From a virus (lineage: Duplodnaviria; Heunggongvirae; Uroviricota; Caudoviricetes), in the IMG/VR virus record IMGVR_UViG_2936390555_000003, positions 1 to 64,000 of that record: a DNA stretch of 64,000 bases. One strand, 5' to 3'. Position numbers and translations under genes: made by a program. Of this stretch, positions 14,173 to 29,020 are shown piece after piece. Within the stretch, counting starts at the first letter, position 1; every line of letters begins with the position of its first letter. Below the pieces are notes generated by a model, which did not search any database, was not told the origin of the DNA, and worked only from the letters and a program-made list of their open reading frames with translations.

Positions 14173-14218
14173 AACCCTCTCTAATCTCTGCAAAAGAGAA
14201 AAGGGAGGGTTGTTTTTT
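14173..14218 (+). terminator. second rho-independent terminator (AACCCTC...GAGGGTT + TTTTTT)
   Basis: Long imperfect hairpin 14173-14211 followed by GTTTTTT. Confidence 0.55.
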
Positions 14219-14233
14219 ATTATTGCATGTTGT

Positions 14234-14440
14234 CTATAACTCTGTCCCATCTAAACATACTTGCGGTTCGTTTTTGTAAGAACCGTCTATTCTTTTTCTG
14301 ATAATTCTTGCACTTCGTTCTTCGCCCGCTTCCTCATATGCCTCTGCTATGAAATTAGCATAGGATAAGAATTTAACTTCATCCCCTTCCATGTGAGCAG
14401 AGATAAGAATACCTATTGTTGTTGCATTTATTACCTTCAT
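14234..14440 (-). CDS. hypothetical protein (68 aa)
   Basis: Last gene of the minus-strand block. Confidence 0.45.
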   Translation of the reverse strand: MKVINATTIGILISAHMEGDEVKFLSYANFIAEAYEEAGEERSARIIRKRIDGSYKNEPQVCLDGTEL

Positions 14441-14461
14441 TTTGTCATATCCCCCCTTTTT

Positions 14462-15067
14462 TTATCTGCCTTCCATGAAATCCTCCATTTTCTGAAGGTC
14501 TCGCTCAAGCATACGCCTGTAATTCAAAAGCTCTTTCATTTCAAGTGCAGTAAAGCAATCTTCGTTATCTTTATATGGTTTTGTTGCGGCATCCTTTATG
14601 CCAACGAGCACATCGTACAGCAATTCTTCTTCACTGAGATACACTTGCCAGGCGCGATATATAGTAGCATTGGTTGAATCGAATGAGTCATAAACAATTC
14701 CATCAATACAGCACACTGTATGGTCAGTTATTTTGAGTTTATCATTATCTACTTTTACACCCAGCAAAAACCTTCCTTTAGGATGGTTTAATGCAAACTC
14801 CTTAACTGTTTCCTGTACATCAATCATTAATCTCACAGCCTTGTTGCTCAGATATACACCAATACATCTGGATTCATTAAACATTCTTGACATTTTTATA
14901 CCAAATTCACATAAGTTACGATATGCTTTATCATAAGATATATCAAATGCTAATGCTGTAGCGCGGATAGAACAATCCAGGGAAATGTTTTTCTTTGGAT
15001 TAACATTGAACTCGCAAAACACCTCGCCATCTTTTGGTTTCGGTAAATCATATAGCATAACAATCAC
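14462..15067 (-). CDS. hypothetical protein (201 aa)
   Basis: Long ORF, tightly packed in the minus-strand operon. Confidence 0.6.
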   Translation of the reverse strand: MIVMLYDLPKPKDGEVFCEFNVNPKKNISLDCSIRATALAFDISYDKAYRNLCEFGIKMSRMFNESRCIGVYLSNKAVRLMIDVQETVKEFALNHPKGRFLLGVKVDNDKLKITDHTVCCIDGIVYDSFDSTNATIYRAWQVYLSEEELLYDVLVGIKDAATKPYKDNEDCFTALEMKELLNYRRMLERDLQKMEDFMEGR

Positions 15068-15148
15068 TCCATTGTATCGTATTTCCAGTTTTCATTTTGT
15101 CATATTTACCATTTTATCACATTAGAAAAGCGTGGGGAATACCCACGC

Positions 15149-15613
15149 TTAAACAACTTTCAATGTACGGAATATCACGGAAGAATCATCGAACCTAATT
15201 GTGTCATCGAAGCTATCAGTAACCTTGTAGCACGTCATGATAAACATAATGTTGTCAACCATATCATTGTCATCAACGTCTTTGCTGACTCCATCTTTAA
15301 CAAAGCTAAGTAAGGTTTGCAGGTACACTCTTATAGCCTCTATATACTCATCTTTAACTTGCATACAAATAGATAAATCATCGCTATTATCAATTGTTGT
15401 TATTGCATACAACGTCTTGCACTCTTTATCCTCGCATGGAAGGTTGTACAGTCTAACACTCTTGTTTCCAAGCCTTGCCATTTTACCATCTGGAAAAACA
15501 TGCATATTCCATTTCTCAGCCCATTCGGTAAAAAGTTTCCTTGCAGTTTCCAGGCTGCACGTGACAGCCTGGTCTTCCATGTACAATCCATCTAAAGCAG
15601 TGACAATATACAT
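15149..15613 (-). CDS. hypothetical protein (154 aa)
   Basis: Operon context. Confidence 0.6.
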   Translation of the reverse strand: MYIVTALDGLYMEDQAVTCSLETARKLFTEWAEKWNMHVFPDGKMARLGNKSVRLYNLPCEDKECKTLYAITTIDNSDDLSICMQVKDEYIEAIRVYLQTLLSFVKDGVSKDVDDNDMVDNIMFIMTCYKVTDSFDDTIRFDDSSVIFRTLKVV

Positions 15614-15615
15614 GA

Positions 15616-16314
15616 TTACTCAGCCCCCTTCATGAAATCTGCGATAACCTTAATTTCCTCTGGCATCCGCTCATACGGTGGTAACTTTCCAGTCTCAGCA
15701 CAGTTGTCATACAGACTGATGATTTCTTTGACTGTCTTTTTGATGAGTGCATGGTACTTATTCGTGCCGAGCAAATCCAGGAGCTTGTCGCCATACTCAA
15801 CGATACCATCATGCACCCAGTAGAAATCCGTGAAATTATCCAATGGCTTACTATTGGAACCCATCTGCAGGATTTCCAGGGCTGACAGGTTATCAACCGC
15901 ACTATCGAAATGCTTGGCGGTGCAAATGAATCCATCGAACCCATGCCTATCAAGGTCAACCACTTCCAAGTCCAGGTACTTATCGATGACATCGAACTGA
16001 GCACTTGGTTTTGAGAACTCAATGCAAGTACACAGGATGTCAAACAGCTTATCCTGCTTATCGCCGGCCAGCTCAAATACAAGCGTGTGTCTCTCGAATA
16101 CGCATTTATATTCATGGAAGCCATCGAACCTCATGACCTTAGTAATGTCATATTCACCGAATGTTCTGTGATTCAGTGTATCATCATAATAATCATGAGA
16201 AAAATCATTGAGGCTAATGCCTATCTGCCTATCACAGGACACAACAGTATCACTTGCAACCACACAGGTGTCTCCATTTTTCAGCGTAATAATATCAGCA
16301 TTCTTGAATTCCAT
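15616..16314 (-). CDS. hypothetical acidic protein, GD-V-L repeat paralog family (one repeat)
   Basis: N-terminal MEFKNADIITLKNGDTCVVASDT...ISLNDF is paralogous to ORFs 16318..16752 and 17161..17646. Confidence 0.6.
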   Translation of the reverse strand: MEFKNADIITLKNGDTCVVASDTVVSCDRQIGISLNDFSHDYYDDTLNHRTFGEYDITKVMRFDGFHEYKCVFERHTLVFELAGDKQDKLFDILCTCIEFSKPSAQFDVIDKYLDLEVVDLDRHGFDGFICTAKHFDSAVDNLSALEILQMGSNSKPLDNFTDFYWVHDGIVEYGDKLLDLLGTNKYHALIKKTVKEIISLYDNCAETGKLPPYERMPEEIKVIADFMKGAE

Positions 16315-16317
16315 AGC

Positions 16318-16752
16318 TTATTCCTCCCCACCAAGCAATTCCATTTTCCCATCAATGAGCCTATAGTGCTCACATATATCCAGGTCTTCATCCCATGTGT
16401 TCATGTACCCCTCATACTCAGTGAGCTCAATCCACTGGCAGTCCTTGGGAAATATAATGCGATTACCGGCAATTACACCCCTGTCACCATCTTTGAGTAC
16501 AACAATGTCACCGCACTCAAGGGGCTCACCACGCTTGAACACAGTGGTGTAGCACTGCTCATAGCTTTCCTTTCTCTTGATTTCCATGATGTCCCACTCG
16601 ATGCAAATCTTGCATGTGCCATTATCCCTGAAATCCTCCAGGGAAATCCAGTCCCAGTCACCGCGCTCATCGATTCTTACGATGGCATCATCAGATACCA
16701 CGCCCTCAGTCTTGTCCCTGAATACAACTATGTCTTTCTGTAAGAATTCCAT
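16318..16752 (-). CDS. hypothetical acidic protein, GD-V-L repeat paralog family (two repeats)
   Basis: Repeats KDIVVFRDKTEGVVSDDAIV and CGDIVVLKDGDRGVIAGNRII. Begins MEF...ISLEDF like ORF 15616..16314. Confidence 0.6.
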   Translation of the reverse strand: MEFLQKDIVVFRDKTEGVVSDDAIVRIDERGDWDWISLEDFRDNGTCKICIEWDIMEIKRKESYEQCYTTVFKRGEPLECGDIVVLKDGDRGVIAGNRIIFPKDCQWIELTEYEGYMNTWDEDLDICEHYRLIDGKMELLGGEE

Positions 16753-16859
16753 GATTTTTACCTCCTAAAACTATAGATTAATCCCCATTTTTGAGGGGTA
16801 TTAATTGCCTGTCCATATAATTATATAGGCAAGCAATTTTACCCCTCGAAAAACAGGCT

Positions 16860-17189
16860 TTAAACGGCTTCTATGATGCGAATATCCACGTCAATGAGAC
16901 CAATGCTCTTCTGACAGACAATGTTATCATCTATATCCACGCTGATATAGTCGCCAAATGCTTTCTCACAAAATTCCCTGAGAATTTCACGGGCACCGCT
17001 GAGGCAATACTCCCATGTCATAATCAGGTAAAAATTATGCTTATACAGTTTGGTCTTGGTGTGTGCAGAACTCATGAACTGTATGAATTTTTCATCGCGC
17101 TCATGTAACTTCATGAGCTGGGCATAGTCCTCCACAAGTAACGCAGCTTTTATCATCATATTAATCGCGCCTCCATATTTCCCTGCCAT
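16860..17189 (-). CDS. hypothetical protein (109 aa)
   Basis: Operon context. Confidence 0.5.
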   Translation of the reverse strand: MAGKYGGAINMMIKAALLVEDYAQLMKLHERDEKFIQFMSSAHTKTKLYKHNFYLIMTWEYCLSGAREILREFCEKAFGDYISVDIDDNIVCQKSIGLIDVDIRIIEAV

Positions 17190-17646
17190 CCCTTATGATA
17201 ACCATTACATCAATGTCGGAGTTTCTCTCACCGTGCTGAAGGTCATCTGTGAAATAATCCCAGTAAACAACTTCGTATGTAGCCCTGTGAACAAAGTATG
17301 GACCGGACACAATGTAATCTTTTTCATTCCTCAGCGTTACAATGTCGCCATTTTTCAACATGTAGCGTGGATCAACACGTCTCCAGATGCGCTCATATTC
17401 CCTGCTGCCCTCATGTTCATCGTCGCCCCAGTCGATACGATACACTTCCATGATGTCCAGCCCGTCATCCTGTATGTGCCTATAGTCATCAGTGTAATCT
17501 TCAAAGAGCACATAGTCATATGCATCATCATCTATATCGCTGGGAACAAATGCAATAATGTCACCAGCAATTGTGCCACGCCTGTAATCCCTCAGCACAA
17601 CGACATCTCCGTTAAACAGTTTCATGATTACATACCTCCATTTCAT
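17161..17646 (-). CDS. hypothetical acidic protein, GD-V-L repeat paralog family (two repeats)
   Basis: Repeats KLFNGDVVVLRDYRRGTIAGDII and LKNGDIVTLRNEKDYIVSG. Confidence 0.6.
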   Translation of the reverse strand: MKWRYVIMKLFNGDVVVLRDYRRGTIAGDIIAFVPSDIDDDAYDYVLFEDYTDDYRHIQDDGLDIMEVYRIDWGDDEHEGSREYERIWRRVDPRYMLKNGDIVTLRNEKDYIVSGPYFVHRATYEVVYWDYFTDDLQHGERNSDIDVMVIIRDGREIWRRD

Positions 17647-17872
17647 TTTTCGTATGCTTAACCCTCGGAATACTTGGAATTTCCGTGTATTCCTTTATCC
17701 TGAGCTGCTCACATGAATTAAATTCATACAAGAGCCTGTAGAATTTCCCTTTTTTAGCATCGTTAGCCTGCCCATCCTTGGCAACGAGGATATTTCCCAC
17801 GCAATGGCCAAGAGCCTCGAAGGTTACCGAGCGTTTTTCCTTGTGTACGCATTGGACATAGTCTATGTACAT
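17612..17872 (-). CDS. hypothetical protein (86 aa)
   Basis: Operon context. Overlaps its neighbour by 35 nt. Confidence 0.45.
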   Translation of the reverse strand: MYIDYVQCVHKEKRSVTFEALGHCVGNILVAKDGQANDAKKGKFYRLLYEFNSCEQLRIKEYTEIPSIPRVKHTKNEMEVCNHETV

Positions 17873-17876
17873 TGGT

Positions 17877-18128
17877 TCACTCCCTTATCTTATAGAATTT
17901 CACTCGCTTAAATATCTTTCCCACATGATGCTCGCATGTGAACACGAGATACCGTTCCCTCAATTGCTCAGTGGAAAAAATAGGGGAGACGGTGATACCA
18001 ATCTCCCTCAAGCCCTCAATAATGTCCTTCCGCTTCCATTTCTTCCATGGCTTTTCGCCTCTAGCATAGGCTGATATAGCATTGTTGCTCATCATCTTGT
18101 CTTTAGAGTACCCAGCCATGACAATCAC
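17877..18128 (-). CDS. hypothetical protein (83 aa)
   Basis: Operon context. Confidence 0.5.
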   Translation of the reverse strand: MIVMAGYSKDKMMSNNAISAYARGEKPWKKWKRKDIIEGLREIGITVSPIFSTEQLRERYLVFTCEHHVGKIFKRVKFYKIRE

Positions 18129-18167
18129 TCCTTTGTTTCACAATTATACGCTTTGAATTTACGTTTG

Positions 18168-19073
18168 TCAAGCTAATGTACGCTTGATATTGCAAAGACT
18201 TCTTCCATAGAAGCACCCTGCGGAGCCATGCAGGTCGCAGTCAGGACAACGCCATTCACCTGCACGCTTGATTACTCCTTTCTGTATCGTCTTTTTTCCT
18301 GAGTCAATAGGGCACATGTATTTCTCAGCCCACGCTGGGACAACTGGAATCTCCTTGCTCCCCTTGATGGGCAATACTACACCACCATACTCAAGGAACC
18401 TATCCTTAAGCTTGTCCAGCATTGGATAATCCTTGTTCTTGTATACGAAAGCCAATGGAAGGGTAGGGTAGATGTGGAGATTTTTTGCTGATGCATCGAC
18501 AGACCACATGATTACATTCATATCCCTGTCCAGCTTCTGGATAAGCTCAGGATACTTGGAAAATATCTGTGTTCTTATACCCCTTTCATTGAGGAGCTCA
18601 ATTACCTTCAGCCAATCATCGTTGATGTCACCTTTATCAAACATACGCAACGCTTCTCCGTGGCGGTGCGTTGGAGCGACATTGTACTCACAGCTAATCA
18701 TGTGAGCAACCCTGTAGGGGTCAAGGTGTGCAGCGAGAGCAATTAATTCACCCTTGATAGCCACTTTTCTCATGATGTAATGCCCAAAGCAGGCATAACA
18801 ATACTTAGCACATGCTTCCGTGGGATTGCAGTCAAGATAGCTGCCGTTCACGCAAAGCCCTGGCTTGCTTGCGTGACCGCAAATGCCCACGGAATACAGC
18901 CAATCAAAAAGCCCATCAACTCCACGCTCTTTCATGGGCTGATAGGCCGAATGTGTTTCATCGAATACGCTTTTATGCACATTTTCTTTTCCTTGCAGCA
19001 AATCGTTGGCTGTATGCCTTATTTCTGAGGCATATCCTGCCATGCGATGCCACGCTGTTCCCTTCAGGCTCAT
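18168..19073 (-). CDS. hypothetical Cys/His-rich protein (301 aa)
   Basis: Contains ICGHASKPGLCVNGSYLDCNPTEACAKYCYAC (including a C-x3-C-x2-C) and C-terminal CPDCDLHGSAGC. No radical-SAM glycine-rich motif was recognised. Confidence 0.6.
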   Translation of the reverse strand: MSLKGTAWHRMAGYASEIRHTANDLLQGKENVHKSVFDETHSAYQPMKERGVDGLFDWLYSVGICGHASKPGLCVNGSYLDCNPTEACAKYCYACFGHYIMRKVAIKGELIALAAHLDPYRVAHMISCEYNVAPTHRHGEALRMFDKGDINDDWLKVIELLNERGIRTQIFSKYPELIQKLDRDMNVIMWSVDASAKNLHIYPTLPLAFVYKNKDYPMLDKLKDRFLEYGGVVLPIKGSKEIPVVPAWAEKYMCPIDSGKKTIQKGVIKRAGEWRCPDCDLHGSAGCFYGRSLCNIKRTLA

Positions 19074-19589
19074 TTATTTCACTCCTTTTCTTGGTAAATC
19101 GTGTAATCCTACGGCATTATTGATGGATTCCACTTCTTCATCCGTGAGAATACGCTTTATCTTAATAGCTCCGCAGATATACCACTGAACCACCGCCTGA
19201 GCATTGGTTTTGTATCTGTAGAAGCCATTTTTTGGCACGTATCTCAGCATTTTATCCCGAGCACACTTCCCAGCAAGCTCAGCCTGTACCTGGTAGTCAA
19301 TTTCATCACTGAATTCTATCAGTGCCCACACCTGGTTGTCCGGGCGGTAGCTTGGGCGTGCATCCGTGGGATTTTCCTTGCTTCCAATGTGTGTAGCCAC
19401 GGGATACTCGCATACATGCCATCCAGGACGGAAGCAAAGTTCTCCAGAGGATGCCTTGACTCTCCCTGATGGCATACGCTTTCCTTCGGATGCCTCCAGC
19501 CATACCCCGATGGGGCGTGGTTCCTTTGCATCCACATAGAGGGTAAAGAGCTCTCCATGCTTTACATTGAATAACTTGTAGCCTTCCAT
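19074..19589 (-). CDS. hypothetical protein (171 aa)
   Basis: Operon context. Confidence 0.55.
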   Translation of the reverse strand: MEGYKLFNVKHGELFTLYVDAKEPRPIGVWLEASEGKRMPSGRVKASSGELCFRPGWHVCEYPVATHIGSKENPTDARPSYRPDNQVWALIEFSDEIDYQVQAELAGKCARDKMLRYVPKNGFYRYKTNAQAVVQWYICGAIKIKRILTDEEVESINNAVGLHDLPRKGVK

Positions 19590-19600
19590 AATACCCTCCC

Positions 19601-20044
19601 TTACACTGCAATATTGTTGTCAACAAGGTAATGGGCCAGCTTATTGGCAGCCTGGTATCTTGCTTCCGTGTTCCAATCATATGCTGGCATACCGTGGATT
19701 AATACGTTCCTTCCAGTGCGACTGGTGTTAGTTACATAGAACACAGTACAGTATTTTGGCGTGCTCCATGCAATAGAGCGCATTACATCGGTTACGCTTA
19801 ACCCCTTGAACACCTCATTCAACGTCCTGTCATTAAAGAACACAGGTACATCAAGGTCAATCTTCCTGTTATATACGTCCCTCAACAGGTCAAAGAAAAT
19901 CTCCTGATTTTCCATGAGCTTGTGCAACATGAACTCATACTGTCTCTCGCTTGCTTCACGCTCTGCAATCATATCCATGAGCTCATCGTACTCACGCTTC
20001 ATAATGTCTGCCCGTGCCTTCATGTCTTCAATGTTGTTCATCAT
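19601..20044 (-). CDS. hypothetical protein (147 aa)
   Basis: Operon context. Confidence 0.55.
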   Translation of the reverse strand: MMNNIEDMKARADIMKREYDELMDMIAEREASERQYEFMLHKLMENQEIFFDLLRDVYNRKIDLDVPVFFNDRTLNEVFKGLSVTDVMRSIAWSTPKYCTVFYVTNTSRTGRNVLIHGMPAYDWNTEARYQAANKLAHYLVDNNIAV

Positions 20045-20045
20045 T

Positions 20046-20831
20046 TTACTTTTCCTCCTTGTAAATCCTTTTCATGATTGCTGCTACGTCATCCTGGTCA
20101 ATATTAAGATACCTCATTGTAGTTCCAGGATTTTTATGTCTCATTGCAGTCTGAATGTACTGCAATTCAACGCCATGTTTTGACAGTGTGTTCGCAAAGT
20201 ATCTGCGGAAAGAATGTGGGTGATAGGGGAGACCACATTCCCTGCAAACCTTACTGACCATGAATTTCATACCCTCCAAGGTCATCGCTGCCTTCTGCTG
20301 GGTAACAAATAATTCATCCAGGTCATACTTGCGTGTGTCCAGGTATTCATCAAGTGACTCACGCACCCTATTATGGATAATGGGAACCACGGCATCCCGT
20401 TTCCCTTTTGTATTCCTGAGCAGGATTTTATTCCCAGATAAAATATCTCCGAGATGCAAGTTAGCAACCTCGGAGATACGGAGACCATTATATGCCATGA
20501 GGGCAAAGATTAATTTGTCTCTTGGGCGTTTCAATACACCCCATATTTTCTCAACCTCCTCATCGGTGGGGCAGGGCTCAATAGGATTATTACAACGATA
20601 ACCCTTGATTATCCTTGCCTTGTCCTTGGATAATTCACCGTAATAATCAAGCGCACTTTTGAGTACCGTGAGGTACATCTTTTTCGATGTGCCCTTGATG
20701 CTGTCGTCTGCAATGAACTCAATAATTTCCTCTTTGCTGCCTGTCTTGAATTTCTTCAAGGCATTACAGTAGTTCTCGTAAGTGTTCGGTGAACGTGTCC
20801 TCCGGATTTCCTCAAGATATTCTTTAAACAT
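20046..20831 (-). CDS. second tyrosine recombinase (short, XerC/D-like, 261 aa)
   Basis: Catalytic motifs AYNGLRISEVANL (Arg), HPHSFRRYFANTL (H-x-x-R), AMRHKNPGTTMRYL (His...Tyr). Confidence 0.85.
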   Translation of the reverse strand: MFKEYLEEIRRTRSPNTYENYCNALKKFKTGSKEEIIEFIADDSIKGTSKKMYLTVLKSALDYYGELSKDKARIIKGYRCNNPIEPCPTDEEVEKIWGVLKRPRDKLIFALMAYNGLRISEVANLHLGDILSGNKILLRNTKGKRDAVVPIIHNRVRESLDEYLDTRKYDLDELFVTQQKAAMTLEGMKFMVSKVCRECGLPYHPHSFRRYFANTLSKHGVELQYIQTAMRHKNPGTTMRYLNIDQDDVAAIMKRIYKEEK

Positions 20832-20833
20832 GC

Positions 20834-21841
20834 TTACATCTCCTCCCAGAGCATTTTCAAGGCGGTATCAAGGAGCTTGTTGCCTTCCAGGGCATCTACC
20901 ATAGGGCGTTCTGCAGAAGACTTCGTTCTCCTTACCGGTTCAGTATGATAAGCAAAGTCACTCGCTGCTGAAATAAATCCCCAGCCATCAACGAGGTTAC
21001 CATTCCAATGGTCAGCAAGGTCAGGAGCCTTGAGGCACCTCATGAACCTCACCCTATTTTCTGAGGCTCTCTGCGTTGCAATATCTCCCATGTCAGCATT
21101 GATAGGGAAGAGCCTATTGACCATCTGACATCCACGCTCAGTACCAATCTTTACATGGGCAAGAGCCTCGGCTGTATCGTTGAGAGCCTTGTTGTATTTG
21201 GTCTGCATGGCAAGAATGTTCTGACATTCTCTTACCTTGCTGGCAATGTCTCCCTTGTGAGCAAAACTCCACTTGCGAGCAGCCTTTTTCAGTGCCAGGT
21301 TCATGGTATTCTGGCAAAATACACGGACATTCGTGAAGCATACGCTCACCGCACGGGTTCCGTCGAAGCTATTGGCGAACAAGAGATAATTCTCGAACTC
21401 ATCTCCGAGAACCATGCTGTCGGGCGTTCTTGCGAGCATCCATATCACCTTGGAACCCTTGACATGACCAGCAGTTTCCAGTTGTATATCATGTTCAAGA
21501 AGCTCGTCAATAAAATCAAATGCTTCCCAGTTCTGGACAATGCGATACTTCTTTCCCACAGTTCCGAGGATTTCTCCATTGTCAGTACGATAGTTTGCCA
21601 CTGCACCCGTAGGGACCTGCACCCCATCGATGTAGCAGAACTGGTCTGCCTGGGACACGGTAAAGTCCAAGTCTGCAAGATGCAATGCATCCCGCATTTT
21701 CGTGGAGCCAGGGAAGGTGATACTTCCAAGGCTATCCCACGGATTCTTACGGGTATCATACATGCTCTTTGGTACGATATTCCTCTGATTGATTACGGTA
21801 TTCCTCTGATTCACTACTGCTAACATTTTTATTACCTCCAA
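20834..21841 (-). CDS. DUF932-family (phage/plasmid-like protein) protein
   Basis: 335 aa. Motif ANSFDGTRAVSVCFTNVRVFCQNTM matches the DUF932 NSxDGSxA...C.N core. RBS GGAGG upstream. Confidence 0.55.
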   Translation of the reverse strand: MEVIKMLAVVNQRNTVINQRNIVPKSMYDTRKNPWDSLGSITFPGSTKMRDALHLADLDFTVSQADQFCYIDGVQVPTGAVANYRTDNGEILGTVGKKYRIVQNWEAFDFIDELLEHDIQLETAGHVKGSKVIWMLARTPDSMVLGDEFENYLLFANSFDGTRAVSVCFTNVRVFCQNTMNLALKKAARKWSFAHKGDIASKVRECQNILAMQTKYNKALNDTAEALAHVKIGTERGCQMVNRLFPINADMGDIATQRASENRVRFMRCLKAPDLADHWNGNLVDGWGFISAASDFAYHTEPVRRTKSSAERPMVDALEGNKLLDTALKMLWEEM

Positions 21842-21978
21842 TTCTCTAACGTGTCCCTAAGCTGTTTTGCAAGGTTATCATAGAGCTCACCCTTGATGTG
21901 CACTCTACTGTCACCTGTGTACTCGTCAAGGAAATCCTCGATGATGTCGATGAGGCATCCAATCAGCTCTTCATCCAT
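21832..21978 (-). CDS. small acidic protein (48 aa; not in the ORF track), tentative
   Basis: Strong RBS GGAAGGAGTGACACGC before ATG (21978). Translates to MDEELIGCLIDIIEDFLDEYTGDSRVHIKGELYDNLAKQLRDTLENWR. Its stop overlaps the DUF932 RBS/start. Coordinates hand-derived. Confidence 0.4.
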   Translation of the reverse strand: MDEELIGCLIDIIEDFLDEYTGDSRVHIKGELYDNLAKQLRDTLENWR

Positions 21979-21983
21979 GCGTG

Positions 21984-22451
21984 TCACTCCTTCCATCCAT
22001 ACACTTTCTTCACTGCATCCGCGAGGCTCTCCGTGTACTTGCTAACAAACTCATCCAGCGGCATCTCATGGAGCCTATCCATATCCTTTACCTTCCTGTA
22101 CACGATGTTGTGGTGTCCGTCATGGTGATACAGGGTAGACCTCAGCTCGCCATCCTCAATAAAAAAGGTTGCATCATCGCAACCATGGAAATTGAATATG
22201 TCACTCAGTATTCCAGATGTGATTAAGTGATACCCCTGCGTTCTCCCATTCCAGAACCCAAGGTCTGCCACCTCAATAATTGGAGAACCAACGTCAATCC
22301 TGAGATTCATCCTCTCGTCATCAAGGTATTCTTTATTCAGCTCGCTGACGATATTGTACTTCTCATCATCATCGGTAACACCTGGAAAACATTCCTCCAA
22401 ATAGTCCTTGTAATCATCAATGTCGACTTCGCTGCTCCAAATTTTAATCAT
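21984..22451 (-). CDS. hypothetical protein (155 aa)
   Basis: Operon context. Confidence 0.55.
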   Translation of the reverse strand: MIKIWSSEVDIDDYKDYLEECFPGVTDDDEKYNIVSELNKEYLDDERMNLRIDVGSPIIEVADLGFWNGRTQGYHLITSGILSDIFNFHGCDDATFFIEDGELRSTLYHHDGHHNIVYRKVKDMDRLHEMPLDEFVSKYTESLADAVKKVYGWKE

Positions 22452-22827
22452 GTGTATTACCTCCTTTTAACATTGGTACTGGCTGGGCATTATCAATTGC
22501 TATCATGATTTCGGTATTGGCTTCACCGAAGCCTTCACCGAATTCCCTGTCAACAATTTCCCAATCACGGATAATATATGTACCATTGTCTCCGTTATCC
22601 GTATCCAGCCTGTCATACCGGTCAATACCGATAGACAGTGCACCGCCAAAATAGTTTGCTGCCACTTGACACAAGCGTGCCCACCCATAGCAATCACTTT
22701 CTGGCCTCCTGAAGCCAGCACGCTTACAATACTTAAGCAGGGAAGCTACGAAATCAGGATTTCCATTCCAGTGCATGTATACACCGACTTCCCTTGTCTC
22801 GGTCGTTATTACACACCTGTTTCCCAT
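22444..22827 (-). CDS. hypothetical protein (127 aa)
   Basis: Operon context. Confidence 0.55.
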   Translation of the reverse strand: MGNRCVITTETREVGVYMHWNGNPDFVASLLKYCKRAGFRRPESDCYGWARLCQVAANYFGGALSIGIDRYDRLDTDNGDNGTYIIRDWEIVDREFGEGFGEANTEIMIAIDNAQPVPMLKGGNTHD

Positions 22828-23678
22828 GATTCTTCCTCCTTTACCTCTTCGTACAATTCCTGTATAATCTCACGCCCATAGTAGGCTACGTACTCCATCA
22901 GTATATCTTTACCCATGTAGACGGAGAGCTCATCCAGCATTTCCTGTTCTTCCTGTGTGGGGATAAAGCAATCCTGCGTTTCATCGAGCCTCCAATCTTC
23001 TTTATAGGGAAAACTGGGAAGCTCATCTGATTCATTTACAATCTCAGTCACCACCTTTATCGTGTGCTCTAATTCAGGTAACACGATGTACTCATGTTCC
23101 GTGTGAGCATTGTAGTATCCACAGGACAGGTTCACAGCGGCAATTCCAAGGACAGGGGCGATGTCCACAATATCACTGTACGAACCTATGTCCGTATGGA
23201 ACCCCTTGGAAGTAATGTAATCCTCCAGTTCGGGGCAATAGCAATCGTAATACACGGCATCATTCTTGCCCTTACGGTCAAGCTCAATAATGAACTTTAT
23301 GGAACTCATTCTTTTCCTGAGCCCCTCGTTCTTGAGATATTCATTAACAAACCTGCTTGCCCCGATTCCACCGCTTTCCTCACCGCATGTAAAGAGGAGC
23401 CACGGCTTTTTCTTTGCCTTTTCACGGATGCTCACGAGAGCATACACACCACAACGGTCATCACCTCCGATACCCTGCGGAGACATCCAGATTTTACTGG
23501 ACCGACAAATGGTTTCCACTTTTTCCTTGTGAACCGTGTCCAGGTGGGCAACGAGAAGCACAGGAGCTTCACCTGGAACCAGGATATACTTGATGGCTTC
23601 GTGGATTGCATTTTCATACCTGCGAGTGAGCCGGTTGAACAACTGCAATTCGGTTTTCCTTATGATTTTACTCAGCAT
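22809..23678 (-). CDS. co-catalytic zinc peptidase-like protein (M28/M42/M20 fold)
   Basis: Metal-ligand motifs LLVAHLDTVH (H-x-D), GIGGDDRCG (Asp), FTCGEESGGIGA (Glu-Glu), and a later NAHTEHE (His). Confidence 0.5.
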   Translation of the reverse strand: MLSKIIRKTELQLFNRLTRRYENAIHEAIKYILVPGEAPVLLVAHLDTVHKEKVETICRSSKIWMSPQGIGGDDRCGVYALVSIREKAKKKPWLLFTCGEESGGIGASRFVNEYLKNEGLRKRMSSIKFIIELDRKGKNDAVYYDCYCPELEDYITSKGFHTDIGSYSDIVDIAPVLGIAAVNLSCGYYNAHTEHEYIVLPELEHTIKVVTEIVNESDELPSFPYKEDWRLDETQDCFIPTQEEQEMLDELSVYMGKDILMEYVAYYGREIIQELYEEVKEEESWETGV

Positions 23679-23680
23679 AC

Positions 23681-25255
23681 TTATGCCCTCCCTAAAGTTT
23701 CACGGCTTACCCGTGGGAAACACTCAGGACAAAGACCATCCCTAAGAGTGCTCAACGGATAGGCATCGTCACATTCTTTGCATTCCGAGAATCTGCTGTT
23801 ATAACAGTATTCACATACTGTTATACTGCTACCATCATGGTCGATTGCATCATGTGTCTCTTCCTTGTTACCATAGTTACTGCACCAGTCGCATTTTTCA
23901 TAGTTCTCGGCGCACTCATCGCATACCCTGCCAATTCCGGATAGGCATTGCGTCTGAGAACTGAATACATCTCTTTCACAGCAATTACATTCGACAACCT
24001 CTGAATCATAGCAAGCATCGCAAACTACCACCGATTCACCTGTTTCCAGGTCGTGGACTTCATTTCCATTTCCATGGTGGACAGCATCGCCACAGCAAAA
24101 GCAAATGTCATAACCCATATCTTCCAGGCAATCGTTGCAGTAGAGGTACTTATCGATTTCCTCGCCACACTTGAGACAAAGCCCTGCCTCGCCAGCAATG
24201 AAAGGACTTGCTGTTTCCATGTGAGATTTGAGTACAGATACTGTTGCTAAATTACTGAAATGCCACCAGTCAGCATATCCGCCGAATAATCCGTGCTCAT
24301 GTACCCAAGTTCTCCCCCATTGGCTTACTGTTTTCTTGGTCCAGAGATTTACCTCGCCCTCAAGGAGAGCAATTTCCCTCTGGACAAGGTCACGGTAAAG
24401 CCTGTACTCTTCCACCTCTGTATCAGTGCCTCCGTTGGTGGTATAGAGGCGAGACTGACACAAAACGCCATTCCCAGGCTCATACATGAAGAGCTGTCTT
24501 GTTGTCTTGCGGTTATTCAGCGTTTCCTTGTCGCTAGGGTCCGCCACGGTAAATGCGATGAATGTCACCGGGTCACGGGCATACCCAGTACATCCGTTGT
24601 TATACTGATATTCAGTGCATGTCAGGGAGTGGCATGAGGTGAGCATCTGTCCACGGTCATCTCCATGGGGGTTGCTCATAGTAAGAAAATGGGCTGGGTT
24701 CAAGCTGAGGAACAGCTTGTAGCTCAGCTTTCTGCTATTCATTTCATCTGCCACTTCTGCGAACTTCTTCTGGAACCATGAGCCTTTAGACTCATTGACG
24801 ATTCCAAGGCTCTTACATACTCCATGGAGTACGCGGGATAATTTCTTTCCTGGCCTCCATGCGTTTGGAGCGACCCTCTGTAATACTGGCAAGTGCTCGT
24901 TTTCATGACATGCAAAGAATCTTGCAATTTCAGCTATCTCACTAAGGCGAATGTCTTCTCCCACCTTTGCCTTCACAAGAAGGTCAACGACTCCCGAATA
25001 TACCATCCCAACAACTGGCTCATGGGTACGATTGCCATTCAATACAATCGCATCGAGTTCCTCGTCCCACGATGGGGACTTACGGAAGAGCTCACGGAGT
25101 CCCTGCTTTGCCATGGTACTGTCCTCCGCGAGCCGTTCGTAAAAAGGCTCGTCTGTGAGAATATGGTCATCAACATCGATATGTTCGTTGTAATCTATCA
25201 TGGCAAGGCGAATGTTCTGCTCTGCCATAGCAATTTTCTCTTCCATGCTAATCAT
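23681..25255 (-). CDS. large hypothetical protein (524 aa) with a C-terminal ~170-aa tail carrying more than 30 Cys in C-x-x-C / C-x-C pairs
   Basis: Single long ORF. The C-terminus is dense in CxxC (CLKCGEE...CNDCLED...CFCCGD...CDACYD...CNCCERD...CDECAEN...CDWCSNY...CEYCYN...CKECDD...CPEC). The N-terminal ~350 aa were not assigned to a family. Confidence 0.65.
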   Translation of the reverse strand: MISMEEKIAMAEQNIRLAMIDYNEHIDVDDHILTDEPFYERLAEDSTMAKQGLRELFRKSPSWDEELDAIVLNGNRTHEPVVGMVYSGVVDLLVKAKVGEDIRLSEIAEIARFFACHENEHLPVLQRVAPNAWRPGKKLSRVLHGVCKSLGIVNESKGSWFQKKFAEVADEMNSRKLSYKLFLSLNPAHFLTMSNPHGDDRGQMLTSCHSLTCTEYQYNNGCTGYARDPVTFIAFTVADPSDKETLNNRKTTRQLFMYEPGNGVLCQSRLYTTNGGTDTEVEEYRLYRDLVQREIALLEGEVNLWTKKTVSQWGRTWVHEHGLFGGYADWWHFSNLATVSVLKSHMETASPFIAGEAGLCLKCGEEIDKYLYCNDCLEDMGYDICFCCGDAVHHGNGNEVHDLETGESVVVCDACYDSEVVECNCCERDVFSSQTQCLSGIGRVCDECAENYEKCDWCSNYGNKEETHDAIDHDGSSITVCEYCYNSRFSECKECDDAYPLSTLRDGLCPECFPRVSRETLGRA

Positions 25256-25923
25256 TTTATTGCTCCTTTCTCCTTCATGGAGACAAAGCTGTCTCCACCG
25301 ATGATAATGTGGTCGAGCACGGAAATATTCATGATTTTTCCTACCTGAACCATGCGAGCGGTAACCTCAAGGTCCTCTTTGCTAGGCGTTGGGTCACCAC
25401 TTGGGTGATTGTGAACCAGGATAATCGAGGCTGCTCCTTTGATTATCGCTGGCCTAAAGACTTCCCGTGGGTGTACCACGGAAGCATCCAGGGAACCTAT
25501 TGAGATAGTTTCCCATGACAAGATATGATTCTTTACATTGAGCAGGATGATACAAAAATGCTCCCTGTTTTCATATTTCAGCCGTGAAGCTGCGTAATCC
25601 GCAGCATCCTCTGGACAGGTGATAATTTTGATATTCCTATTTTGTTGCCCCAGTCTCTTGGCGAGCTCCAGGAGAGCAAGTAGCTCCAGTGATTTCCCTT
25701 TCCCTATGCCAGGAAAGGATTCAAGATTAATATCCCTGAGCCCTGCGAGCCCATTTGCTTCCCTGAGTAATTCCTGAGCTACCTCGTAACCTGAAGTGGT
25801 GCTGGTATCTTTGATAAGCAGAGACAGGAGCTCTGCATTACTCAGAAACCCTGCCCCCAAATGCTTGAGCCTTGTGGATGGGCGTTCATCCACAGGCATT
25901 TCACGAACAAATATAGTCGCCAT
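25252..25923 (-). CDS. radC: RadC-like JAB/MPN-domain protein (UPF0758)
   Basis: JAMM motif VHNHPSGDPTPSKEDLEVT. Helix-hairpin-helix-like N-terminus. 223 aa. Confidence 0.85.
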   Translation of the reverse strand: MATIFVREMPVDERPSTRLKHLGAGFLSNAELLSLLIKDTSTTSGYEVAQELLREANGLAGLRDINLESFPGIGKGKSLELLALLELAKRLGQQNRNIKIITCPEDAADYAASRLKYENREHFCIILLNVKNHILSWETISIGSLDASVVHPREVFRPAIIKGAASIILVHNHPSGDPTPSKEDLEVTARMVQVGKIMNISVLDHIIIGGDSFVSMKEKGAIK

Positions 25924-26033
25924 TTTTCTCTCTCCTTTACCAAATTTTTCCTTTTTCCTAAGTAAAAACCAATAAAACTTTGAAACTCCAAAAATTTTCC
26001 TTTTTTTGTACAGGCTTTTAACCCAGGAAAGTC

Positions 26034-26258
26034 TTAGAATACGTCAACGATTAATACCGCTGACATAAACAAGAGCCCCATGATAAGCAACGCACTCGTT
26101 GCTATCCCAGTGTGTAACCCTAGAAGGATAACGCACCCCATGACCCCTAGAGCTATGTACTCCGCGAAATCATCGGGGTACTCTTCATATGCTGCACAGT
26201 AGGCAGCATAGAACGCAAGGGCAAGAATTGATATTATGAGAGTCCAGTCAATAAACAT
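26034..26258 (-). CDS. small membrane protein (74 aa, 2-3 TM)
   Basis: Hydrophobic segments IISILALAFYAAYCAAY, GVMGCVILLGLHTGIATSALLIMGLLFMSAVLIV. Confidence 0.5.
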   Translation of the reverse strand: MFIDWTLIISILALAFYAAYCAAYEEYPDDFAEYIALGVMGCVILLGLHTGIATSALLIMGLLFMSAVLIVDVF

Positions 26259-26584
26259 TAGAAATCCTCCTTTACAATGTCAACGCGGAGCACACGCTCC
26301 CATTTCTCAAACGGCATTTCCACAGAGCCATCGGGGAGAATAGTTCTCCCCATTTTCGCGGTAATCACAGGCTTATCCCCAGCAATCCGAAGGATGCCTG
26401 CAAGCAAATTCGGGGGAGCCACCACGGCAATAATGTCATGCGCCTCAATTTCCTGGGCTATATCCTGGGCGGACTGGATAGACTTGTTCACCTGGGTAAT
26501 ATCAACGTCACCCAGCTTATCCATGAGAGCCTGCATCTGTGCCACCTGCATGAGGTGGCGCGAAAACCATAATACTTTTGTCAT
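26258..26584 (-). CDS. hypothetical protein (108 aa; Rossmann-like pattern)
   Basis: Internal ATG (26584) with RBS GGGGAGAAAGTTGAGG. Confidence 0.5.
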   Translation of the reverse strand: MTKVLWFSRHLMQVAQMQALMDKLGDVDITQVNKSIQSAQDIAQEIEAHDIIAVVAPPNLLAGILRIAGDKPVITAKMGRTILPDGSVEMPFEKWERVLRVDIVKEDF

Positions 26585-26760
26585 AATGAACCTCAACTTT
26601 CTCCCCGTAACAAGTCGTACAAGTGTACTAAATCGAGCACACCGACATACCTTAAGCCGATAGGACAGCACAAAACTTATACTTGCTCATGCCAATTCAT
26701 GGGCAAAATAAAAGAGCCATACAAGTAAATCGCATGACTCCTCTGTTTGCCCATGACATA

Positions 26761-26964
26761 CTATAACCCCATCGCAAACTCTGTCAGCATGGCAATAATG
26801 GTAGCCTTGCTTGCACGGAATGGCAGGTGATACACAGGGAGCTGCCCTGCAACCGTGCCTCTACGATAGAATACATAGGTGGCTTGTGCCCCGCAACCGC
26901 GAAGCTCCACCTGATACCTCTTTATCTTAAGTATACTAGGCATAACTATTCCACTCCTTTGCAA
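26761..26964 (-). CDS. hypothetical small protein (67 aa), weak
   Basis: Only ORF in the minus-strand block that ends in TAG. No clear RBS. Confidence 0.3.
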   Translation of the reverse strand: MQRSGIVMPSILKIKRYQVELRGCGAQATYVFYRRGTVAGQLPVYHLPFRASKATIIAMLTEFAMGL

Positions 26965-26966
26965 TA

Positions 26967-27239
26967 TTAATTACCATACCTGGCTTCAAGCTGAAGACTG
27001 AGAAAAAGACGGATACGCCTTGGTACAGTAGGGTTGAGTATGGTTTCAACGAAATCAAGAATTACCTCGGCTTCCTTACGCTCCTTGCGATACAGTGGAC
27101 GCCGGTGCCCTTTGGTGCGCCCCTTAGTAAACCTACGTGGCTCAGTGAGCTTCCTGAGCAAACTAATGGCTTCCTGTGACTCAGGGCCACTAAAATGGTA
27201 CTCAACGAGAGTGCTTATGAGTAACTTTGTTTTGAGCAT
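26967..27239 (-). CDS. hypothetical basic protein (90 aa)
   Basis: Operon context. Arg/Lys-rich. Confidence 0.45.
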   Translation of the reverse strand: MLKTKLLISTLVEYHFSGPESQEAISLLRKLTEPRRFTKGRTKGHRRPLYRKERKEAEVILDFVETILNPTVPRRIRLFLSLQLEARYGN

Positions 27240-27245
27240 TGTTTT

Positions 27246-27629
27246 TCACCTCCTCCAGTAATTACGGTTCCAGGTGATGGCACCCCTGGCAACCTCGCCT
27301 ACACACAACTCGCCATAGGATGGCGTTTGCCCACCGCCTATGTAGTGCCTCTTATGGCTACGGTGGAGAAGCTTGTTTGTGTCGTATACCGCGACACCAT
27401 CGCTCCCCTTGTATTCCGGTGTACTCTTGATGGTAGCAGGGATAGGCGGCAACTCAAGGTTAATTCGCCCCTGAGTATCAATGAGCCACGATATATGCCG
27501 TTTGCCCCCACATGTAAACACGGCTATAGAGACGTTTTTCTCGTGGTCCCTATAGTGCTTGACGAACACGAGTGTGAACATGCCTTTTACAGTGAGCTTT
27601 TGCCCTGGCGTTAGGTCTTTGATATTCAT
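27246..27629 (-). CDS. hypothetical protein (127 aa)
   Basis: Internal ATG with RBS TGGAGGGCTACC (GGAGGG). Confidence 0.5.
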   Translation of the reverse strand: MNIKDLTPGQKLTVKGMFTLVFVKHYRDHEKNVSIAVFTCGGKRHISWLIDTQGRINLELPPIPATIKSTPEYKGSDGVAVYDTNKLLHRSHKRHYIGGGQTPSYGELCVGEVARGAITWNRNYWRR

Positions 27630-27715
27630 GGTAGCCCTCCAATTGCATAGTAAAAAAGCATAGTGTATAGTCACCATGCTTGTGAGACATAGTTTTGTGC
27701 GACACTATTTGCACG

Positions 27716-27750
27716 CATAAAAAAAGAGGCTAGGGAAAAATCCCTAGCAC
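27716..27750 (-). terminator. rho-independent terminator on the minus strand (CTAGGGA-TTTTT-TCCCTAG + U-rich tract)
   Basis: Hairpin 27731-27748. On the minus strand it is followed by CCTCTTTTTTTAT. Lies between the first and second genes of the minus-strand block. Confidence 0.45.
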
Positions 27751-27761
27751 TCTTGCAGGTA

Positions 27762-28201
27762 TCACAGACACAATTTATAAAAATAGCCGTCCTTGTCGTA
27801 CATAAAATTAGCACATGTGATAATATCTGCTTTCATAGTGTCGCCGTCAAACGTTGTAAAATCAACGGCATAACCACCAACCCCACTGCCTAGCGGATTA
27901 TGGGATATGGAAGCCCCATTTTTCGAGGCTTTCACATAAATTTTTTTAGCCGTATCACTATAAGCAATTTGTGTTTTAGTGATATAGCCTTGCATGGTGT
28001 ACGCTCTTACAATGTCAATATAAGTATTGGCAATAGTATTTTCTGTATACTCATTATCTTTAACAAGTATGCTGTCCTCGGGTATCTCGCCAAATTCCAT
28101 AGTCAACGCTGTTTTTGGAGCCCCCTGCATCTCATAGATACTATCTGTCAGCCTTGCCAACAATGCCTGTACATCTGCCACACTTGCCTTGCCTTTTGCC
28201 A
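27762..28201 (-). CDS. hypothetical protein (146 aa), first gene of the minus-strand block
   Basis: ATG (28201) with RBS GAAAGGTGG. Confidence 0.55.
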
Positions 28202-28708
28202 TGGTAAAGACCACCTTTCATTATATATAATTGTAAATGTGCTATCGCCCCTTGGCTTTTGCCTCAAGGCTTGCATATAAGGTATCATGAAATCCTATTT
28301 TCGCCTATGTATACATTAAAATATCGCTTTATAACCATAAAGCCAGGTATCAAGGATAGACCCCGGACCCCGTGCCACACAAGGGCTCCCAGGGTGCAAA
28401 AATTTTCACCAATGATAGCAAAAAAATTTATCTTCGCGCGGTATGACCCTCATATCCCGTGGCCACCAATTTTTCAAATGAAATCCCCCTCAAGCCCAGT
28501 AATATCAACGCTTCTCACTGTCATTCACCCACCGAAACACTATGTAATTCCCAGGCATCAAATGAAAAAACTCTGCTAACCCCAGTAATACCAAGGGGTG
28601 CAAGGCTCTGTACCAAAGCGAAACAATATTTTTATGGGACTAAAGTTTCATTTTTAAAAATTTGAAAATTTTTTTGGGAAACATGGAATATTATTGTGGG
28701 CTAAATAC

Positions 28709-29020
28709 ATTATATGTAGAACAGGTTTTTACGTTCTATCCTTTTCTCTTCTTTGTAAAGGAGCTGAGAAGGACATGGACTCATGAGGAAAACTTTGCGA
28801 ATCGTTAGTGTTGCATTTCCCAGTCTTTGACTTGCGACTCTTACTCATGTTGTTCATGGCTTTTTCAGAACTCGCCCATGAAGTACAGTGCAGCTTATGC
28901 TGTGAGATAGTAGTGGGAGCAACCCTATTAATCCGTCATTGGCATGGAGTGCTTCTTTAAAAGAGAAGAAAGTAGGGAATGAGGATACGACCGTCTGTGG
29001 GGGACTACAGGGGGTCAATG
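28709..29020 (+). ncRNA. candidate structured RNA / late-operon leader element, copy 1
   Basis: Shares with copy 2 (52813-53090) an ATTATATGTAGAAC box, a covarying closing helix (TTCTCTTCTTTG...AAAGAGAAGAAAG here; TTCTCTTTCTTTG...AAAGAGAAAGAAAG in copy 2), an exact 48-nt core (28871-28918) and a GGGGG-N5-GGGGG motif. Confidence 0.4.

Follow-up and report, generated by a model that had tools for sequence, protein, structure and literature searches.

Most of the counter-defence and host-takeover functions that still await discovery are to be sought in the early accessory regions of phages. In virulent phages, such host-takeover and anti-restriction regions, for example the class I genes of T7, which include Ocr, and the pre-early region of T5, have their own promoters and many small, acidic and fast-evolving members, and are expressed before the genes for replication and morphogenesis. 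To our knowledge, the phages of gut Firmicutes have hardly been explored by experiment. Here, we describe a reverse-oriented, 14-kb block of genes (14234-28214, minus strand) in a phage of a gut bacterium, probably one of the Clostridia, from IMG/VR (record IMGVR_UViG_2936390555_000003, positions 1 to 64,000; this whole 64,000-nt stretch is referred to as the window). The block is a real, separately transcribed accessory arm written in the standard code, and it contains an obligate two-gene module composed of a zinc-ribbon protein and a hydrolase. We propose that the block may be an early establishment and counter-defence arm, the disaggregated equivalent of polyvalent proteins and plasmid leading regions, a judgment that we hold to be evenly poised.

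RadC is listed as a domain of polyvalent proteins; solo versions of such domains occur in phages and have been argued to aid the early phase of invasion (PMC5512222). The block resembles these systems in that its RadC, 301-aa and 171-aa proteins are homologous to domains of the giant polyvalent proteins. It differs in that its domains are separate genes of an operon, whereas those of the giants are fused, and in that it holds no MuF, zincin or LPD Pfam domain. Because each block gene encodes one or two domains and only the homologs are embedded in giants, the block may act like polyvalent proteins without being a member of that group. In conjugative plasmids, anti-defence islands lie in the leading region (PMC11541004) and are, like the block, strand-coherent arrays of small, mostly unannotated genes. 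Homologs of the block's RadC and DUF932 proteins are frequent on conjugative plasmids, and the zinc-ribbon/hydrolase pair lies beside an AcrIIA9-family gene in Vescimonas. Unlike the plasmid islands, the block belongs to a phage without an oriT or single-stranded DNA promoters, and Pfam and NCBIfam detected no ArdA, PsiB, single-stranded DNA-binding protein (SSB) or Acr in it. The block resembles the T7 and T5 early regions in its predicted promoters of its own, small acidic proteins and fast-diverging members; in contrast to them, its phage is temperate, and its proteins have no sequence similarity to Ocr or T5 pre-early proteins. In recoded gut phages, the recoded stops are reported to fall mainly in genes for structure and lysis, whereas the integrase and the genes for replication avoid them (bioRxiv 10.1101/2021.08.26.457843). 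The phage of the window likewise has TAG-recoded late genes, a suppressor tRNA and TAG-free integrase and replication genes, but it also has a 14-kb code-neutral accessory arm, and it was matched to no named clade of that study. We would place the block among early accessory and counter-defence arrays of phages and other mobile genetic elements, built of solo polyvalent-protein domains; the interpretation given in the original prediction is partly supported.

Architecture and transcription of the block

The block consists of 26 consecutive minus-strand open reading frames (ORFs), almost gap-free and about 97% coding. Between about 14 and 29 kb the GC skew is negative, and to either side it is positive. 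The strand-coherent run and the inverted skew together argue that the block is genuine and not a chance run of ORFs. The original prediction, made from the sequence, had described a tightly packed single-strand array of about 27 genes oriented opposite to both the early and the late operons; the array and its orientation hold, both operons lying on the plus strand, and the count becomes 26. Several genes start a few codons inside the mechanical ORFs, as gene 1 probably does, at the ATG at 28202.

The left boundary is formed by two plus-strand intrinsic terminators (14124-14218) at the end of the early (replication) operon, as had been predicted. One of them (14124-14137, followed by a T-run) came from the terminator scan, and the second, a hairpin with T6 at about 14174-14218, was read from the sequence. 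Directly before them on the plus strand lie two direct repeats of about 47 nt (14027-14122), each a GTCGTAGAGCCACGAC hairpin followed by AAAGAAAGCTCACTGAGAAGA, which may constitute a regulatory RNA or protein-binding element. At the opposite end, gene 1 (27762-28202, minus; 146 aa, MAKGK...) has a strong Shine-Dalgarno sequence, GAAAGGTGG, and forms its own transcription unit, judging from the sequence and from relatives. Five close relatives were available for comparison, the 76.6-kb IMG/VR contig L001 (TerL 99% identical) and four independent metagenome contigs, L107-L110. The terminator expected after the first gene was found by the scan on the minus strand at 27748-27729 (GCTAGGGA-TTTT-TCCCTAGC plus T7, an 8-bp stem), and it is kept in L001, where gene 1 is 32% identical. 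That makes gene 1 the fastest-diverging gene of the block; its only similarity is a faint tautomerase-like one.

The best match in a 16-kb promoter scan lies inside the block, a sigma-70-type promoter at 18171-18143 (minus; TTGACA-17-TATAAT, 12 of 12 consensus matches) whose hexamers are both identical in five relatives, even with a diverged spacer. The sole sizeable intergenic gap of the block (16753-16859, minus) holds a palindrome, TTGCCTATATAATTATAT..AGGCAA (inverted repeat I1), between two short G/C hairpins. Near-identical in L001 and L107-L109, this gap is likely a terminator/promoter/operator junction between sub-operons. From the gene 1 terminator, the internal promoter and the 16.8-kb junction it follows that the block comprises at least three or four transcription units, which would be gene 1, a long unit spanning roughly 27.7-18.2 kb, and a further one or two that start at the promoter at 18171-18143 and the 16.8-kb junction.

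Between gene 1 and the late operon lie 1.3 kb of non-coding sequence (28203-29514), presumably with divergent promoters. A structured element had been suggested at 28215-28700, a claim that we do not retain: the predicted fold of the 28.3-28.7 kb sequence is as stable as that of shuffled sequence (z = -0.11), and Rfam gave no match. The motif CCCAGTAATA(T/C)CAA occurs twice at 28480-28600, with about 95 nt between the copies, which are possible protein-binding sites in the block promoter region. Further on, just 5′ of the late operon, a 44-nt AT-rich repeat (GATATACATTGTATTACTATGATATATATGTATACTATGTATAC) occurs three times, at 29044, 29282 and 29389 (29044-29432), together with related inverted copies; the repeats occur in L001 as well and are candidate iterons or late-activator sites.

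Recoding of TAG and predicted expression of the block

The phage encodes a tRNA with anticodon CTA, which reads TAG, at the head of the late operon (30784-30871, plus; 88 nt with a long variable arm; found by ARAGORN and scoring 56.6 bits against the Rfam tRNA model), followed by a tRNA-Lys(TTT) at 31033-31107. The late genes (31.5-64 kb) contain 25 in-frame TAG in 8,892 codons (2.8 per 1,000), as opposed to none in the 4,512 codons of the block, where about 13 would be expected and the other two frames hold 47 and 43; the early observation that the block lacks in-frame TAG therefore stands. The early module is also without in-frame TAG, except for single TAGs in the probable N-terminal extensions of two ORFs. 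Read-through of TAG fuses late ORFs, giving one 353-aa ORF for the reverse transcriptase, 1,298 aa for the J-like pieces, and a single frame for the tape-measure pieces. Because the late genes need the CTA tRNA and the block has no in-frame TAG, the block can be translated by unmodified host machinery before the code switch. The block belongs to the host-code-readable gene set, which implies expression early in infection, in lysogeny, or both. A recoded temperate phage thus keeps a large accessory arm readable by its host, which fits a role of recoding in splitting pre-switch from post-switch gene sets.

PHROG scans identify the window as a temperate siphovirus-type phage. Its early part carries an integrase (1-993, minus), a Gp2.5-like SSB, primase/helicase, exonuclease, RusA, ribonucleotide reductase and dUTPase, and 3′ of the block lie a Rha/Ant-HNH gene, TerL, portal and tail genes, a J-like tail protein and the reverse transcriptase of a diversity-generating retroelement. 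A Xis-like gene and an XRE repressor adjoin the integrase. In the lysogeny switch (1040-1590), two promoter-like elements with a common core, TTGACC...TGTATCATGTATATAGTC and TTGACT...TGTATCATATATGTAGTC, flank the Xis-like gene (plus) and the XRE-type repressor (minus), and the motif is found nowhere else in the window. No GenBank phage matched at the DNA level when the block or the packaging and head region (TerL to major capsid) was used as query.

Expression in lysogeny is central to how the original prediction read the block, namely as cargo that the lysogen would express from the block's own promoters and that would serve lysogenic conversion, superinfection exclusion or a new defense. The temperate lifestyle of the phage, with its integrase, Xis-like gene and XRE repressor, speaks for this, as do the opposite orientation of the block, its autonomous promoters and terminators, and its use of the standard code, which it shares with the integrase. 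One small membrane protein is encoded (26034-26258, minus; 74 aa with no K or R), although the prediction had spoken of several and only this case is clear, and analogous arrays in other phages include genes for PemK toxins. We nonetheless regard prophage cargo as distinctly unlikely. A search of the block against PADLOC-DB v2 returned nothing beyond a generic similarity to JAB (E 5e-4 to 8e-3) and a match of 50 aa to IetA that is spurious, so that, as predicted, no known defense system is present; the further statement that any system here would be new presumes a defense system, of which PADLOC found none. The block is not a variable island in its lineage. Most of the proteins that it encodes are acidic or are cytoplasmic enzymes, and it has no genes for repressor-like proteins, surface proteins or toxins. 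Among the three roles that had been offered, anti-defence is the best fit, and no block product points to lysogenic conversion or superinfection exclusion. Homologs of the RadC, peptidase and DUF932 proteins occur in large phages of Enterococcus, Staphylococcus, Campylobacter and actinobacteria, several of which we take to be virulent, and this weighs against a role specific to lysogeny. In addition, the zinc-ribbon/hydrolase pair occupies an early-operon-like position in PolA/VapE phages.

Several side observations concern the late and early genes. The reverse transcriptase (62677-63738) is a single ORF only if the TAG at 63388 is read through. It belongs to the retroelement at 60882-63738 (plus), in which the reverse transcriptase (PHROG 1423, E = 2e-109) lies 3′ of a tail-associated target (PHROG 11262), both interrupted by in-frame TAG. 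In the tape-measure region (42026-52204, plus), ORFs of 560, 279, 998 and 1,291 aa share one frame, and reading TAG as sense gives a 3,392-aa ORF with 7 TAG. The large subunit of ribonucleotide reductase is split into ORFs at 9293-10102 and 10372-11724 (plus) with about 270 nt between them, perhaps through an intron (none was detected with Rfam), an intein or a recoded stop.

An obligate zinc-ribbon protein and hydrolase pair

The 524-aa protein (23681-25255, minus) has a helical N-terminal domain, a conserved alpha/beta core with the motifs SNP..D.RG..SCHS..N.GC.GYA.D, NNRK..RQ and FGGY.DW, and a C-terminal array of CxxC zinc ribbons. It had been credited with more than 30 cysteines, and we count 29. 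The protein falls in a large unannotated family of at least 919 clusters with no Pfam domain, and its structure is predicted with confidence but has no fold match in the PDB. Remote homology of the family to PcfJ was considered and ruled out (hhalign probability 0.8%).

The adjoining gene (22809-23678, minus) encodes a 289-aa di-zinc hydrolase of the M20/M28 type, which lacks the lid and ends in an acidic C-terminal tail. It matches M28 in Pfam at 6e-5 (PF04389, 23.3 bits against a cut-off of 21.3), M20 at 1e-4, and PHROGs 34186 and 4191 (PHROG 3e-40). Its HLDTVH, GGDDRCG, GEESGG and AHTEHE segments align to the metal and catalytic motifs of PepT/tripeptidase with the ligands intact, which bears out the zinc peptidase of the original prediction as an M28/M20-type enzyme. 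The alignment covers only the N- and C-terminal catalytic segments of PepT (373-420 aa), and the M20 lid/dimerization insert is absent; the NCBIfam PepT models score far below their cut-offs.

A hydrolase homolog lies directly 3′ of the 524-aa family member in 63 of 65 testable species-representative genome loci, which come from Lachnospiraceae, Oscillospiraceae, Selenomonadaceae, Veillonellaceae, Synergistales and others, and both exceptions are fragmentary matches. The two genes are also adjacent in the relatives L004, L005 and L015 and in L021, L026 and L027, which are mouse-gut and other PolA/VapE phage contigs. The 524-aa protein and the hydrolase are an obligate two-gene module. In the PolA/VapE phages, the pair comes after one to three small genes near the start of a long operon divergent from the replication module. 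On the 3′ side of the pair this operon continues with at least 12 small unannotated genes, including a weak match to the Lar restriction-alleviation protein and matches to PemK. In Vescimonas fastidiosa (L025), the pair stands beside genes annotated as YodL, AcrIIA9-family, PcfJ and LigA. The Vescimonas locus (pMM35_02, NZ_AP023417.1, 121.7-137.8 kb) is a small element between an integrase and an excisionase that also holds a lambda-exonuclease, a RecD-like helicase and a sigma factor; its sequence record is labeled a plasmid, yet is linear with housekeeping genes. A 144-kb metagenome scaffold (L024) carries tandem copies of the pair at 10001-15283 (566 and 305 aa, then 496 and 370 aa), with DUF932 and DUF5688 genes downstream.

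We speculate that the hydrolase is a candidate effector and the larger protein its targeting or regulatory subunit. The pair, with a large protein of about 520-590 aa, could be a new two-component effector, widespread among the phages and integrative elements of Firmicutes from gut and rumen, that neutralizes a host immune component or signaling molecule early, and in parallel the radical S-adenosylmethionine (SAM)-like domain of the 301-aa protein, with its Cx5Cx3C motif, could represent an unrecognized radical-chemistry counter-defence. We offer this combined proposal tentatively and consider it on balance somewhat improbable. If either the pair or the radical-SAM-like enzyme were anti-defence, it would be a new class in a field dominated by proteobacterial examples, and these two are the objects that we would follow up.

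Solo domains of polyvalent proteins

The 301-aa protein (18168-19073, minus) corresponds to an internal domain of proteins of 2,000-7,000 aa that carry LPD14, LPD23, MuF_C and ddrB-ParB, and a 301-like domain is embedded in more than 150 giant polyvalent proteins. Its structural model is a radical-SAM-like partial (beta/alpha) TIM-barrel whose closest folds include QueE, TYW1 and spore photoproduct lyase, with an invariant Cx5Cx3C where the radical SAM cluster motif is expected and a C-terminal set of four cysteines. The protein had been described as Cys/His-rich; the conserved cysteines are there, in these two arrangements and not as a plain Cys/His pattern. A canonical radical SAM enzyme (CX3CX2C) was considered and rejected, since C95, which would complete the motif, is conserved in 3% of homologs, and we have therefore lowered the claim to radical-SAM-like on the fold alone. 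The protein is accordingly modeled as a radical-SAM-like Fe-S or metal enzyme. In Pfam, it had no match to Radical_SAM (PF04055) at E <= 0.05 and a sole weak match to GP88 (E = 0.029), and its homolog P0132 matches GP88 above the cut-off; by these profile matches the 301-aa protein is evidently a distant relative of GP88. We found nothing relevant on PF17338/GP88 in the literature, and the radical-SAM-like domain has 0 mentions in PMC5512222.

The gene that directly precedes it encodes a 171-aa protein (19074-19589, minus; PHROG 30118, E = 3e-56), the matches of which include domains inside 7 of these giants (E down to 2e-23). In the giant P0220, a 171-like domain adjoins the 301-like domain. 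The third shared domain is that of the 223-aa RadC/JAB protein (25252-25923, minus), which has a UPF0758 N-terminal domain (PF20582) and matches PF04002 (2e-45; 154 bits, cut-off 22) and NF000642 (211 bits, cut-off 180). RadC domains were found in 34 giants; an exact-sequence look-up of the window's RadC returned no record. The search for block-protein domains covered 149 giants, in none of which did the 524-aa protein and hydrolase pair find a match.

These same domains would also suit an auxiliary module for the phage's own DNA metabolism or modification, serving replication and genome maintenance without countering defenses. RadC would then be a nuclease, the radical-SAM-like protein an enzyme of DNA or nucleotide modification and the DUF932 protein a DNA-processing factor, and the recombinase would resolve replicon dimers or concatemers. 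RadC has been proposed to be a nucleic-acid-processing enzyme (PMC5512222), and QueE, TYW1 and spore photoproduct lyase, the fold neighbors of the 301-aa protein, act on nucleobases or DNA. The recombinase is Xer-like and has a homolog of 57% identity in the contig L015, the core genes are conserved to the level of the phage backbone, the block adjoins the replication and nucleotide-metabolism module, and the pair borders the replication module in other phages. On the other hand, the block is on the opposite strand to the replication operon, has its own promoters, and is separated from it by terminators. The block has no partner genes of known DNA-modification pathways, its domains recur in polyvalent proteins, for which delivery and action on the host have been proposed, and small acidic proteins that swap alleles are ill-suited to housekeeping. 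Relatives with 58-59% TerL identity lack the block genes in the 10 kb upstream of TerL, which implies that these genes are dispensable for the backbone. We think a role of the block in the phage's own DNA metabolism unlikely.

Conservation among relatives and the mid-block recombinase

From RadC to the last gene, the order of the genes is the same in all five close relatives, which differ there only by indels or allele swaps of single genes, so that the block is not a variable cargo island in this lineage. The genes for the DUF932 protein, the recombinase, the 171-aa and 301-aa proteins and an 83-aa protein are 91-99% identical in these contigs. Relatives with 71% TerL identity have a reversed block at the same place, and both L004 and L005 keep the pair; in the L005/L015 contig, where the block can be read further, the 127-aa gene and the recombinase are kept too. 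In relatives with 58-59% TerL identity the block genes are gone from the 10 kb upstream of TerL. The original prediction had proposed to check in related prophages whether the block is a variable island; turnover of more than single genes appears only at TerL identities of 71% or less. A conserved, syntenic block with assigned replication or morphogenesis roles had been named as evidence against accessory cargo; synteny is what we find, whereas no block gene has such an assigned role. A tblastn search with the concatenated block found no GenBank phage with more than one block gene at one place.

A DUF932 / TIGR03299 phage/plasmid-like protein of 330 aa is encoded at 20834-21826 (minus; PF06067, 4e-40 and 138.6 bits; TIGR03299, 158 bits against a cut-off of 110.7), for which we found nothing functional in the literature. 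The central block matched 2,578 plasmid records, of which 1,690 are conjugative, and RadC and DUF932 genes are adjacent in a Myxococcus plasmid. The combination of RadC, DUF932 and a recombinase had been called characteristic of conjugative-element cargo, and the recurrence of the first two on plasmids supports that part.

The recombinase itself, a 261-aa Xer-like tyrosine recombinase, lies in the middle of the block (20046-20831, minus). It matches Pfam Phage_integrase (PF00589, E = 1e-25) over profile positions 5-169 of 172, and in its translation the catalytic set is complete: R (GLRISE), K (TKGKRD), HxxR (HPHSFRR), H (RHKN) and Y (MRYL). Against NCBIfam, an XerA-type model is best at 136.5 bits (cut-off 220) and the XerC/XerD models reach 75-79 bits (cut-off about 330), which places the protein outside the XerC, XerD and XerA equivalogs, as Xer-like. 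The presence of a recombinase of its own raises the question of whether the block is a separate small mobile element, or the remnant of an integrative element, nested in the phage. Its reversed orientation and the lower GC content of its distal end (0.39-0.42 at 14-17 kb) would fit such an origin, as would the occurrence of the pair in the Vescimonas element bounded by an integrase and an excisionase. The repeat search, however, found no substantial inverted or direct repeats at the block flanks, and the block has the same position and orientation in relatives of 71-99% TerL identity; together these disfavor a nested element. Moreover, the recombinase is central and not terminal, and TAG avoidance and Shine-Dalgarno usage are like those of the early module. 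We consider a nested element very improbable. An invertible segment, which the internal recombinase also suggested, was ruled out by the same lack of flanking inverted or direct repeats.

A proposed early establishment and counter-defence role

In the early establishment and counter-defence reading, the block proteins would be produced as infection begins, and perhaps in small amounts in lysogens too. Their targets would be nucleic acids of host or phage, host proteins or small molecules, and their effect would be to shield the incoming genome and help it to become established. The core of the arm consists of the stand-alone RadC/JAB, radical-SAM-like and 171-aa domains that are elsewhere fused in giants, and its distal end holds lineage-specific acidic proteins that swap alleles between close relatives. 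The acidic GD-V-L proteins described below and gene 1 are candidate inhibitors or mimics. We favor an early counter-defence role because three solo domains of polyvalent proteins, which are argued to act in the earliest invasion, are present, because the pair occurs in early-operon-like positions and near genes annotated as anti-defence, because alleles turn over in the small acidic proteins and gene 1, and because the RadC, peptidase and DUF932 homologs in large phages, several of them virulent, speak against a lysogeny-specific role. The lack of in-frame TAG, the conserved promoter and terminator, the intact metal ligands of the hydrolase and the modeled fold of the 301-aa protein also count in favor of this reading. 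Speculatively, packaging could start near the small-terminase region at about 29.5 kb and proceed rightward, in which case the block would be the last part to enter the capsid and the first to enter the cell, comparable to the leading region of a plasmid.

Several observations pull in the other direction. The block proteins matched no described anti-defence family in Pfam, NCBIfam or PHROGs. The absence of TAG fits expression in lysogeny as well as early expression, and the block converges on the early operon and is not part of it. No operator is common to the lysogeny switch and the block promoters: TGTATCATRTATATRGTC occurs only at 1060 and 1569, and no further 11-mer of note is common to the two. 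Conservation of the core genes equals that of the phage backbone (91-99%), a slower evolution than is usual for arms-race genes, and it is not obvious what the mid-block recombinase would do in counter-defence. The connection with AcrIIA9, YodL and Lar is one of guilt by association that draws on a few loci and on the annotation of depositors.

Remaining genes of the block

The family scans bear out the gene calls of the original prediction for the Xer-like recombinase (1e-25), DUF932 (4e-40), RadC (2e-45) and the peptidase (PHROG 3e-40). Its description of the block as mostly orphan is wrong for at least 10 genes, and the two largest supposed orphans fall in large families.

The predicted family of acidic GD-V-L paralogs was recovered as three proteins with a common unit of about 75 aa (ORFs 15616-16314, 16318-16752 and 17161-17646; pairwise E 1e-4 to 9e-7) and isoelectric points (pI) of 4.3-4.7. 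By blastp, the 154-aa protein (17161-17625, minus) has two repeat units, the 144-aa protein (16318-16752, minus; pI 4.3) also has two, and the 232-aa protein (15616-16314, minus) has one at its N-terminus (E ~6e-5 to 1e-4 to the 144-aa protein). The family, searched with the 154-aa protein, is lineage-restricted, with only 32 clusters, all at least 59% identical, and no Pfam domain. Its neighbors at the distal end include several that change between relatives. A 99-aa protein (16860-17159, minus) has two alleles, 66-70% or 97% identical (ORF 16860-17189: 70/70/97/66), and a further acidic protein of 154 aa (15149-15613, minus) has two divergent alleles (46%, 84% and 47%). A 198-aa protein (14462-15058, minus; PHROG 3754, E = 6e-16) is 67-73% identical in relatives, and its Cys...His...Asp pattern hints at a possible papain-like fold; PDB sequence searches with four small block proteins, this one included, returned nothing significant. 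The last gene (14234-14440, minus) encodes an acidic protein of 68 aa, ends in a TAG stop, and is replaced in L001 and 99% identical in L107.

Between the GD-V-L genes and the recombinase, an 80-aa basic protein (17877-18119, minus; pI ~10) is encoded by the first gene 3′ of the internal promoter and is followed by an 86-aa protein (17612-17872, minus) that is 80-100% identical in relatives. The 147-aa protein at 19601-20044 (minus) has a coiled-coil N-terminus, and across the five relatives its identities run 99/46/98/98/absent. Four small basic proteins (26258-27677, minus), kept as ORFs in L001, are encoded by ORFs 26258-26671, 26761-26964, 26967-27239 and 27246-27677, the starts of which are approximate.

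Between the DUF932 and hydrolase genes lie an acidic 48-aa protein (21832-21978, minus), an acidic 155-aa protein (21984-22451, minus) that is missing in L001 and present in L107-L110, with homologs in the large viral contigs L016, L018 and L019, and a 127-aa protein (22444-22827, minus) that is usually 3′ of the peptidase in this lineage and has homologs in L015-L020. In L016-L019 (IMG/VR, 70-175 kb), the 127-aa homolog is the N-terminal part of a 223-aa ORF at about 10001-10669. The 155-aa homolog lies 2-3 kb upstream in L016, L018 and L019, and the first two of these also have a Xer-like recombinase, 7-10 kb downstream, so that these contigs hold a second recurring gene set that overlaps the block.

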